Shown piece by piece: positions 1,730 to 2,578 of a DNA stretch of 64,000 nt. Position 1 is the stretch's first letter; every line of letters starts with the position of its first letter. The notes under the pieces were generated by a model. The model did no database searches, was not told where the DNA came from, and saw nothing but the letters and a program-made list of their open reading frames with translations. This DNA comes from a virus. Lineage: Duplodnaviria > Caudoviricetes. Both the position numbers and the translations under genes were made by a program. The stretch lies in the IMG/VR virus record IMGVR_UViG_3300028840_002618, positions 291 to 64,290 of that record; one strand, given 5' to 3'.

Positions 1730-2262
1730 TCTTTCCTCTTTTTCTCCATCACCTTGGTCGTGGCTCTGCGTACATGCCTTCTGTACTTGGGCCGGTAACG
1801 TTTCATGGTCCGTTCCTCAAAAAGCCGCGCTTTGGTGCCTGGATGATCTATAGGCTTTTGAGTGTAGACCCATTCGACCGGGCCGCTCCCATAGGACTCC
1901 CCCTGCGGCAAGGTCTTTGGGTTGGGGTTATAGTTGCCTCGTACCCCATCCCACGGAAAAGCCAAGAATCCCTTTTCACCTACGGGGATGTCATGCCGTT
2001 TGGTTCCTCTGGAGGTCCAGAGCCAGTACATTTTGTTCGGCCCTTTGGCGTTGATGTAGGTAACGATCTGATCGCCTCGGGCCTGGACCCTCACAGACCA
2101 GTCCGTTTGATGCTCCCAGTCCTTCTGCCAGAGGTCTAGTTGATCGGTAACCTCTGGCACGACCCGCGTGCGGGTTTCCTTGGCTATCTCTCGGAGATAG
2201 TCATGGGGGTTCAGATGTTTACTCCCCTTGCCTTTGCTGACTCTGTAGGCCAGGACTTTCAT
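1702..2262 (-). CDS. putative neck protein (HK97 gp10-like)
   Basis: basic ORF with RGTKRHDI...HPGTKAR motifs typical of this family; ATG 2262 after GGAG. Confidence 0.6.
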   Translation of the reverse strand: MKVLAYRVSKGKGSKHLNPHDYLREIAKETRTRVVPEVTDQLDLWQKDWEHQTDWSVRVQARGDQIVTYINAKGPNKMYWLWTSRGTKRHDIPVGEKGFLAFPWDGVRGNYNPNPKTLPQGESYGSGPVEWVYTQKPIDHPGTKARLFEERTMKRYRPKYRRHVRRATTKVMEKKRKEWQRLERKK

Positions 2263-2578
2263 AGGGTCTCCAGATGGGAGCCGCGCCACCGTGCAGGGTC
2301 TGGTTGATGAACTTTATGGCGTCTCGGGCGTCGACGTAGCCTACTGTCCGGTCTCTCCCAAAGGGGTAGAGTGTGCCGGTGTATGGTCCGCGCCAGTATC
2401 GCACGCCCGGGGCCTTGCCGGTGTATTGTAGAAGGATGAAACCATTTTCTCCCGGTATAGGTTCGGGAGGTTGATCGTCCTCCGTTGGCGTTTGGAACCG
2501 ACCCGATCCCTTGCCACCACCGTTTCAGTAGCGTGCGCCTGGGGCGAGTCGTCTCAGTTCTGAGGTCAGATCAAGCAT
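2219..2578 (-). CDS. small virion-region protein with in-frame TGA at codon 18; candidate selenoprotein
   Basis: ATG 2578 overlaps upstream gene end; MLDLTSELRRLAPGARY*NGGGKGSGRF...LLQYTGKAPGVRYWRG in one frame; SECIS-like hairpin directly 3' of TGA. Confidence 0.6.
2484..2527 (-). promoter_or_regulatory. bacterial SECIS-like element
   Basis: UGA-AA-CGGUGGUG-GCAA-GGGAUCG-GGU-CGGUUCC-AAA-CGCCAACG two-part stem with G-first apical loop 22 nt after UGA. Confidence 0.55.

Follow-up and report, generated by a model that had tools for sequence, protein, structure and literature searches.

The textbook case of a bacterial selenoprotein gene whose selenocysteine (Sec) insertion sequence (SECIS) lies inside the open reading frame (ORF) is fdhF, which encodes formate dehydrogenase H of Escherichia coli. 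In the terms of the bSECISearch model, a bacterial SECIS is a stem-loop placed right 3' of the UGA, with an apical loop about 16-37 nt downstream and a G early in that loop. Here we describe a phage gene that appears to be comparable. It lies in IMG/VR virus record IMGVR_UViG_3300028840_002618 (Duplodnaviria; Caudoviricetes), of which a stretch of 64,000 nucleotides, hereafter the window, was analysed, and it would encode, at 2578-2219 on the minus strand, a 119-residue protein whose codon 18, a UGA, is read as Sec by the Sec machinery of the host. We consider this reading probable (roughly 0.7). A first-pass annotation of the DNA had proposed it, and the proposal is now supported by a conserved TGA, by Cys in homologues and by coding conservation on both sides of the TGA. 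As in bacterial selenoprotein genes, the in-frame UGA is matched by Cys at the aligned place in homologues, a candidate hairpin within the coding region follows the UGA immediately, its apical loop lying about 20 nt on, and the gene would depend on SelA, SelB, SelC and SelD supplied in trans. Unlike those genes, it is not cellular, and its product belongs to no named family and has no recognisable redox-enzyme fold; the Sec, moreover, would sit in a flexible N-terminal tail, as the third residue in some relatives.

Among viruses, the accessible text of a 2021 review of viral recoding names two poxvirus genes only as selenoprotein genes (PMC8310308). The poxvirus glutathione peroxidases, found in molluscum contagiosum virus and fowlpox virus, are likewise encoded by the virus and reliant on the Sec machinery of the host; they differ in that they belong to eukaryotic viruses, represent captured cellular glutathione peroxidase genes and use a eukaryotic-type SECIS, whereas the phage case would involve a bacterial host and an in-ORF SECIS, and no cellular selenoprotein counterpart of it was found. 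A full-text literature search found, in the text open to it, no natural bacteriophage-encoded selenoprotein. The main text of a 2026 paper on a bacterial selenoprotein database, which reports 111 families and subfamilies, contains none of the words phage, prophage, virus or viral, while an unnamed 'hypothetical' entry in its supplementary family lists is possible (PMC13326102); phages are unmentioned in the main text of PMC12013277 as well.

Reading frame and features of the gene

The features of the small gene, all on the minus strand, are as follows.

2219-2578, minus strand: full coding sequence of the proposed 119-aa selenoprotein, with start ATG 2578-2576, Sec codon 18 and stop TAA 2221-2219
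2525-2527, minus strand: in-frame TGA, proposed Sec codon (residue 18) and sole internal stop of the frame
2528-2575, minus strand: N-terminal extension, residues 2-17, before the Sec codon; its last ten residues are kept in relatives with a long N-terminus
2581-2586, minus strand: Shine-Dalgarno-like GAGGAA of presumed function, 2 nt ahead of ATG 2578, where the upstream gene encodes its conserved C-terminus
2402-2404, minus strand: GTG start used by gene callers for a 61-aa ORF; it falls within the conserved domain
2483-2522, minus strand: SECIS-like hairpin in the local minimum-energy fold, with lower stem 2522-2515/2490-2483, a 7-bp upper stem 2510-2504/2500-2494 and loop 2503-2501
2249-2455, minus strand: conserved core domain (roughly residues 42-110) made of four strands and one helix, without a named family

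The frame originally proposed, which opens at ATG 2578 in overlap with the upstream gene and is interrupted by a single TGA at codon 18, is borne out by the sequence. The public gene call P0002 is exactly the 61-aa ORF from GTG 2404 (100% identical), the only canonical in-frame start 3' of the TGA, at codon 41 after it. As the domain alignment reaches some 17 residues upstream of GTG 2404, this codon is probably not the true start.

The TGA at 2525-2527 is covered, without a differing letter, by contigs from three public sequencing runs of three studies (two of the runs are possibly the source of the record), so an assembly error does not explain it. Runs containing the window sequence are labelled as sediment and seawater metagenomes, and no RNA run is among those listed as holding it. 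Contigs of two runs, X1 and X2 (depth about 50), match the window at 2388-2425 and 2632-2663, and the 206 letters between are replaced by 346 others, which suggests a co-occurring related phage with another version of the 5' part of the gene; a T>G variant at window position 2646 was also seen in run contigs.

Conservation of the TGA among relatives

A HMMER search of 1.84 billion protein representatives (E at most 0.001) yielded 93 homologous proteins. Related genomes were reached through the upstream gene (L002, L003 and L004, at 82%, 54% and 46% identity), and related loci through an alignment of the family, which gave three loci from 23 pattern matches in viral contigs and 21 loci from 140 pattern matches in metagenome contigs. 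The locus comparison comprised 25 sequences including the window, or 24 once L029, which ends before the N-terminus, was left out. In 23 of these 24 loci, the window among them, TGA is the first in-frame stop upstream of the domain, and it stands about 19-24 codons before a conserved P-G-E motif. Once three exact duplicates are set aside, 20 distinct DNA sequences remain, taken from viral and metagenome contigs. Set against these relatives, the in-frame TGA far exceeds what chance would give. The lone locus without TGA, L022 (identical to P0004), has no stop at this place and reads Cys-Pro-Cys-Gly-Gly.

Every TGA locus has an in-frame ATG, GTG or TTG upstream of the TGA, 2 to 24 codons before it, and these starts form two classes, one only 2 codons before the TGA (Met, a small residue, TGA, then a run of Gly) and the other 10-24 codons before. 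In most related loci a purine-rich, GAGGAA-like motif stands 2-7 nt ahead of the putative start, again within the conserved end of the upstream gene. In 13 of the 20 distinct sequences no canonical start is met until codon 26 after the TGA or later, by which point the conserved domain has begun or already ended. Nine of the 20 also use TGA to end the gene; two TGAs of one message would then be decoded differently, and a local signal would therefore be needed at the first. The group of L011 reads Cys-TGA-Gly-Cys, and L018 differs from L011 and L017 by a one-codon deletion right after the TGA (Cys-TGA-Cys), by which the downstream hairpin is moved 3 nt.

Codon comparisons were made on either side of the TGA. 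Across the 16 codons before it, L011 and L018 have 12 identical, four synonymous and no nonsynonymous positions, and the ten codons before it in the window and L023 divide into three identical, four synonymous and three nonsynonymous. After it, 24 codons of L010 and L016 include 19 identical and five synonymous, with no nonsynonymous change. By these comparisons both flanks of the TGA evolve as coding sequence in one frame, with differences that are mostly synonymous, and the ORF that the in-frame UGA interrupts is itself conserved. Searches with single sequences returned less: tblastn of the 119-aa protein, P0038 and P0004 against GenBank phages gave no match, nor did a word-indexed protein search with the 119-aa protein, and viral-contig scans with the single proteins P0001, P0021, P0008, P0032 and P0038 recovered no relatives.

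Cysteine at the position of the TGA

Homologues hold Cys at the position aligned with the UGA. In phmmer alignments, query residue 18 is paired with a near-N-terminal Cys of P0004, P0010, P0019, P0049 and others, and in a MAFFT alignment (A1) the TGA position of three phages coincides with a Cys column in every homologue that has an N-terminal extension. When the start of the domain was projected onto the 92 other representatives, 47 proved to extend 19 residues or more ahead of it; 45 of these carry Cys in the aligned stretch and two do not. In 42 of the 45 the Cys belongs to a CC, CxC or CxxC motif, a typical N-terminus being M-G-C-C-G-G. The first-pass annotation had turned on the TGA being real rather than an error, on its retention in homologues, on conservation to either side and on the residue that stands in its place elsewhere. 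On each count the outcome agrees with it: contigs of three runs and 20 distinct related sequences carry the TGA, 23 of 24 loci keep it, the differences before and after it are mostly synonymous, and the alternative residue is Cys, not Trp, both in L022/P0004 and in 45 of the 47 distant representatives.

The other 45 of the 92 representatives (within P0003-P0094) start at the domain or within 18 residues of it, as would be expected of gene calling that runs into an in-frame TGA. For the window, truncation of a gene call at the in-frame TGA is demonstrated by P0002, and the truncated forms of L009, L024 and L026, which match P0003, P0068 and P0018, are apparently calls cut in the same way. The 45 short representatives may all be such cut calls, which would amount to a systematic mis-annotation.

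Some Cys-form homologues have further domains. In some of them a family-2 glycosyltransferase is joined to the front of the domain, which keeps its preceding Met-Gly-Cys-Cys-Gly, and others carry a C-terminal helix-hairpin-helix domain; P0030, P0055, P0083, P0088 and P0093 are among the homologues of these kinds. In the window phage, a gene for UDP-galactopyranose mutase is present together with two that are glycosyltransferase-like.

The hairpin downstream of the TGA

The two-part stem 3' of the UGA, and a loop starting 22 nt after it, had been described at the outset, and this geometry is found again in the local minimum-energy fold, where the loop is 3 nt long and its first base is the 22nd nucleotide after the UGA. 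A search against Rfam returned nothing relevant. In most lineages the hairpin loop starts 17-22 nt after the UGA, on stems of unrelated sequence. The longest uninterrupted stem with a loop start 16-37 nt after the UGA, summed over 12 lineage representatives, comes to 76 against 59.4 +/- 4.6 in synonymous randomisations, of which one in 1000 reaches 76, although this statistic was picked after the hairpins had been seen and after energy tests had proved not significant. At the control positions 46-67 and 76-97 the same statistic gives z = 1.69 and -0.81. In an RNAalifold consensus of seven sequences, seven pairs were found, two of them with compensatory double changes.

Several observations weigh against the selenoprotein reading, and most of them concern this hairpin. 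The window hairpin has a folding energy of -16.4 to -17.3 kcal/mol (z = -0.9 and -0.7), 39 and 42 of 200 dinucleotide shuffles fold as well, a 201-nt context takes a different minimum-energy fold, and 16.9% of the 2198 TGA triplets of the window have an uninterrupted stem of at least 7 bp at the same distance. Taken alone, the window hairpin is at chance level, and support for it comes only from comparison across lineages. That comparison has weak points of its own: folding energies of 17 sequences against synonymous randomisation give a mean z of -0.32, with L024 alone below 0.05; three of the 12 representatives (L009, L011 and L026) have uninterrupted stems of just 4 bp; the minimum-energy fold of L002 differs from the hairpin homologous to that of the window; and the loop sequences vary between lineages, several being without a G-U pair of bases. 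Beyond the hairpin, the Shine-Dalgarno spacing in the window is short (2 nt), in seven of the 20 distinct sequences a canonical start (codon 10, 19 or 21 after the TGA) precedes the domain or coincides with its beginning, and a genome-contig scan with alignment A3 over 185,579 species genomes showed no related prophage carrying the small gene. On balance, the sequence comparisons make it plausible that the hairpin is a SECIS, a view that is moderately supported and not proven.

Selenocysteine machinery and the host

The first-pass annotation had seen no sel genes in the window and had proposed that the phage uses those of its host; the genome searches agree with this. No tRNA-Sec, selA or selD was found in the four complete phage genomes, and a selB search, made in the genome of the window only, found none. 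As no sel genes were found in the phage genomes, host Sec machinery would be needed.

A genome-contig scan with an alignment of the upstream gene (A4) gave one match, L030, an 8,681-bp GTDB contig of a metagenome-assembled genome (MAG) from the Anaerolineales. In L030 the gene of the 229-aa type is followed directly by that of the 195-aa type, and the small Sec/Cys gene is absent. The Anaerolineales MAG that holds L030 has selB (above the curated cut-off), which is at most a weak hint to the host. A profile search of 401 genomes of the same phylum brought up three weak matches (E 2.7e-5 to 3.7e-4), none of which was taken as a relative: one is of low complexity, another is a distant domain in which the Cys motif is missing, and the third (L040) could not be interpreted.

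Proposed decoding and alternative explanations

In the mechanism that we favour, translation would start at ATG 2578, coupled to the end of translation of the upstream gene. When the ribosome meets the UGA at 2527-2525, the hairpin at 2522-2483, with its apical loop 22 nt on, would recruit SelB, and Sec would be inserted with no termination. The host would supply SelB as well as the Sec-tRNA-Sec made by SelA and SelD. The product would consist of a flexible, Gly-rich N-terminal tail bearing Sec, ahead of a conserved, compact domain that matches no fold family, and the Sec would take the place of one Cys of the N-terminal Cys-Cys motif of more distant phage homologues. We infer from the comparison with these homologues that the inserted residue would be Sec rather than another amino acid.

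The alternative that deserves most attention, unlikely as we judge it to be, is programmed read-through of the UGA without selenium, in which a near-cognate tRNA inserts Trp, Cys or Arg and the stop serves to keep the amount of protein low. It would explain equally well why the TGA is conserved, why starts lie upstream and why both flanks are kept as coding sequence, UGA is generally regarded as the leakiest of the stop codons, and the non-significant hairpin energies together with the unverified Sec machinery of the host also speak in its favour. What it does not account for is the placement of the TGA exactly at the conserved Cys of the CC motif (45 of 47; alignment A1), which is the usual signature of a Sec/Cys pair, with Trp at this place in none of the 47; nor does it predict that hairpins should be enriched at the distance of a bacterial SECIS and not further downstream. 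In the short forms, moreover, termination would leave a dipeptide, so that read-through would have to be efficient. Quite improbable is a reading in which the TGA does terminate translation, the gene proper begins 3' of it, at GTG 2404 or some non-canonical codon, and the 17 codons before the TGA are a leader peptide or non-coding. Gene callers did pick GTG 2404 for P0002, and seven of the 20 distinct sequences offer a canonical in-frame start between TGA and domain, but the remaining 13 have none before the conserved domain, and a start at GTG 2404 would cost the domain about 17 of its conserved residues, the invariant G43, G46, Y52 and G54 among them. The stretch from TGA to domain is also coding-like, as the five synonymous and zero nonsynonymous differences of L010 and L016 illustrate, and the Shine-Dalgarno-like motif precedes the upstream start rather than following the TGA.

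Two further explanations would remove anything specific to this gene. A genome-wide sense reading of TGA in the host, as Trp or Gly under code 4 or 25, could be made attractive by the run of Gly codons after the TGA in most relatives, where a Gly reading would look natural. Under those codes TGA is unused as a terminator in the genome, and this is not the case here: among the 90 ORFs of a greedy non-overlapping set, which cover 93.7% of the window, 45 end in TAG, 34 in TGA and 11 in TAA, and several neighbouring pairs share a 4-nt overlap at a TGA, which together indicate that the standard code applies and that TGA is an ordinary terminator. TGA also ends the upstream gene (2573-2571) and, in nine of the 20 relatives, the small gene itself; the residue that homologues show at the place in question is Cys rather than Gly or Trp; and the G+C content of the window is about 56%, while the TGA-recoded lineages known so far are AT-rich. 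We regard such recoding as very improbable. In crAss-like phages TAG is reportedly recoded to Gln throughout the genome. The present gene resembles those of such stop-recoded phages in being truncated by standard gene callers at a stop read as sense, and differs in that TGA would be redefined at one position of one gene while it still serves as the stop for about a third of genes. Finally, as the record is a metagenome assembly, the TGA could in principle be an artefact of sequencing or assembly, or mark a pseudogene that has recently acquired a nonsense mutation; it is, however, common to 20 distinct sequences from many assemblies, contigs of three runs from three studies agree at it, and the sequence downstream is still under purifying selection, so that the chance of either is close to nil.

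Genomic context

The window corresponds to bases 291-64290 of the 64,290-bp record, which has direct terminal repeats and is rated complete; a search of the window for tRNA genes found none. The small gene lies on the minus strand in the morphogenesis block, with the major capsid gene to one side of it and a tape-measure-like gene to the other. Several unnamed genes follow the major capsid gene, including a 229-aa gene, the small UGA gene, a 195-aa gene and a 118-aa gene, and the tape-measure-like gene is reached across the end of the genome, as is a 1381-aa Laminin_G_3 protein. The principal landmarks are the following.

15000-16319: large terminase gene, morphogenesis block
12338-14326: portal gene, morphogenesis block
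4953-6086: major capsid protein gene
2571-3260, minus strand: upstream syntenic gene, 229 aa, Cys-rich, without a named family; its TGA stop (2573-2571) overlaps the start of the small gene
1702-2262, minus strand: downstream syntenic gene, overlapping the 3' end of the small gene; probable start ATG 2262, as suggested by the L002 homologue
60300-63020: tape-measure-like gene, reached across the genome end

The 229-aa upstream protein has no Pfam, PHROG or PDB match. Seven of its Cys residues are invariant among four phages, C-x-C pairs included, and this Cys-rich neighbour may be a partner of the protein with the Sec- or Cys-bearing tail.

Elsewhere in the window, the stretch 17693-20379 (minus strand), beside the terminase gene, holds a UDP-galactopyranose mutase gene (Pfam GLF, E 2.7e-36) and, next to it, two genes that match phrog_842, a glucosyltransferase family. 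A 456-aa open frame at 1-1368 (minus strand), which runs off the start of the window, contains repeated short motifs of the Asp-Gly-Gly-x-Thr-Trp type that we take to resemble BNR/Asp-box repeats; it has no PHROG match, and a homologue follows the same module in L030.

Protein model and possible role

An AlphaFold2 model built on a 64-sequence alignment has a mean predicted local distance difference test (pLDDT) score of 83.7, with values of 94-97 in the core (residues 40-110 or so) and 61-79 in the N-terminal 39 residues, which are probably flexible. Residues invariant in the domain include G43, G46, Y52 and G54. The 119-aa protein matched no Pfam or PHROG family, a PDB sequence search for the protein family gave no match at E up to 1, and a fold search of the model against PDB and BFVD gave none at E up to 0.001. 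A weak, non-significant resemblance of the model to the photosystem I subunit PsaD was rejected, and an atlas look-up of P0038 led to unnamed viral clusters only (score 0.83), which serves as a lead only.

Mammalian thioredoxin reductase ends in a C-terminal Gly-Cys-Sec-Gly motif. The phage proteins resemble it, as a lead only, in a Gly-flanked adjacent Cys/Sec pair on a flexible chain end, seen as M-G-C-C-G-G in homologues and as Cys-Sec-Gly-Cys, with the TGA read as Sec, in one lineage. They depart from it in that the phage motif is N-terminal, the window protein has no Cys beside the Sec, and there is no flavoprotein domain. Read from its position, the residue would be a reactive Sec or Cys, carried by a flexible tail rich in Gly and Arg, and gene order, from capsid gene to tape-measure-like gene, would place the product among virion or neck-region proteins. 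In a protein of the head-to-tail morphogenesis block, the Sec probably serves in redox chemistry, cross-linking or metal binding, as far as sequence and gene order can indicate.

A much broader proposal, which we regard as tentative and on the whole doubtful, is that the gene represents a widespread and unrecognised phage selenoprotein family in which up to about half of the sequence clusters (the 45 of 92 representatives with short gene calls) are Sec forms that gene callers truncate at the UGA. A Sec-competent host and selenium would then be needed for a protein of the morphogenesis module, within the particle the N-terminal Sec would contribute to a metal site or be cross-linked as a selenenylsulfide or diselenide, and Sec decoding would act as a determinant of host range. 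Any link of the gene to selenium supply or host range, which the first-pass annotation had raised, is speculation. If the selenoprotein reading is confirmed, a systematic annotation error would be exposed, the present gene having been annotated as a 61-aa fragment and many of its relatives probably being cut short too, and a set of compact in-ORF SECIS elements from unknown hosts would become available. The gene would also offer a natural case of a phage that relies on an optional translation pathway of its host for a gene of its structural module, and this dependence would place a host-range and selenium-supply constraint on infection.

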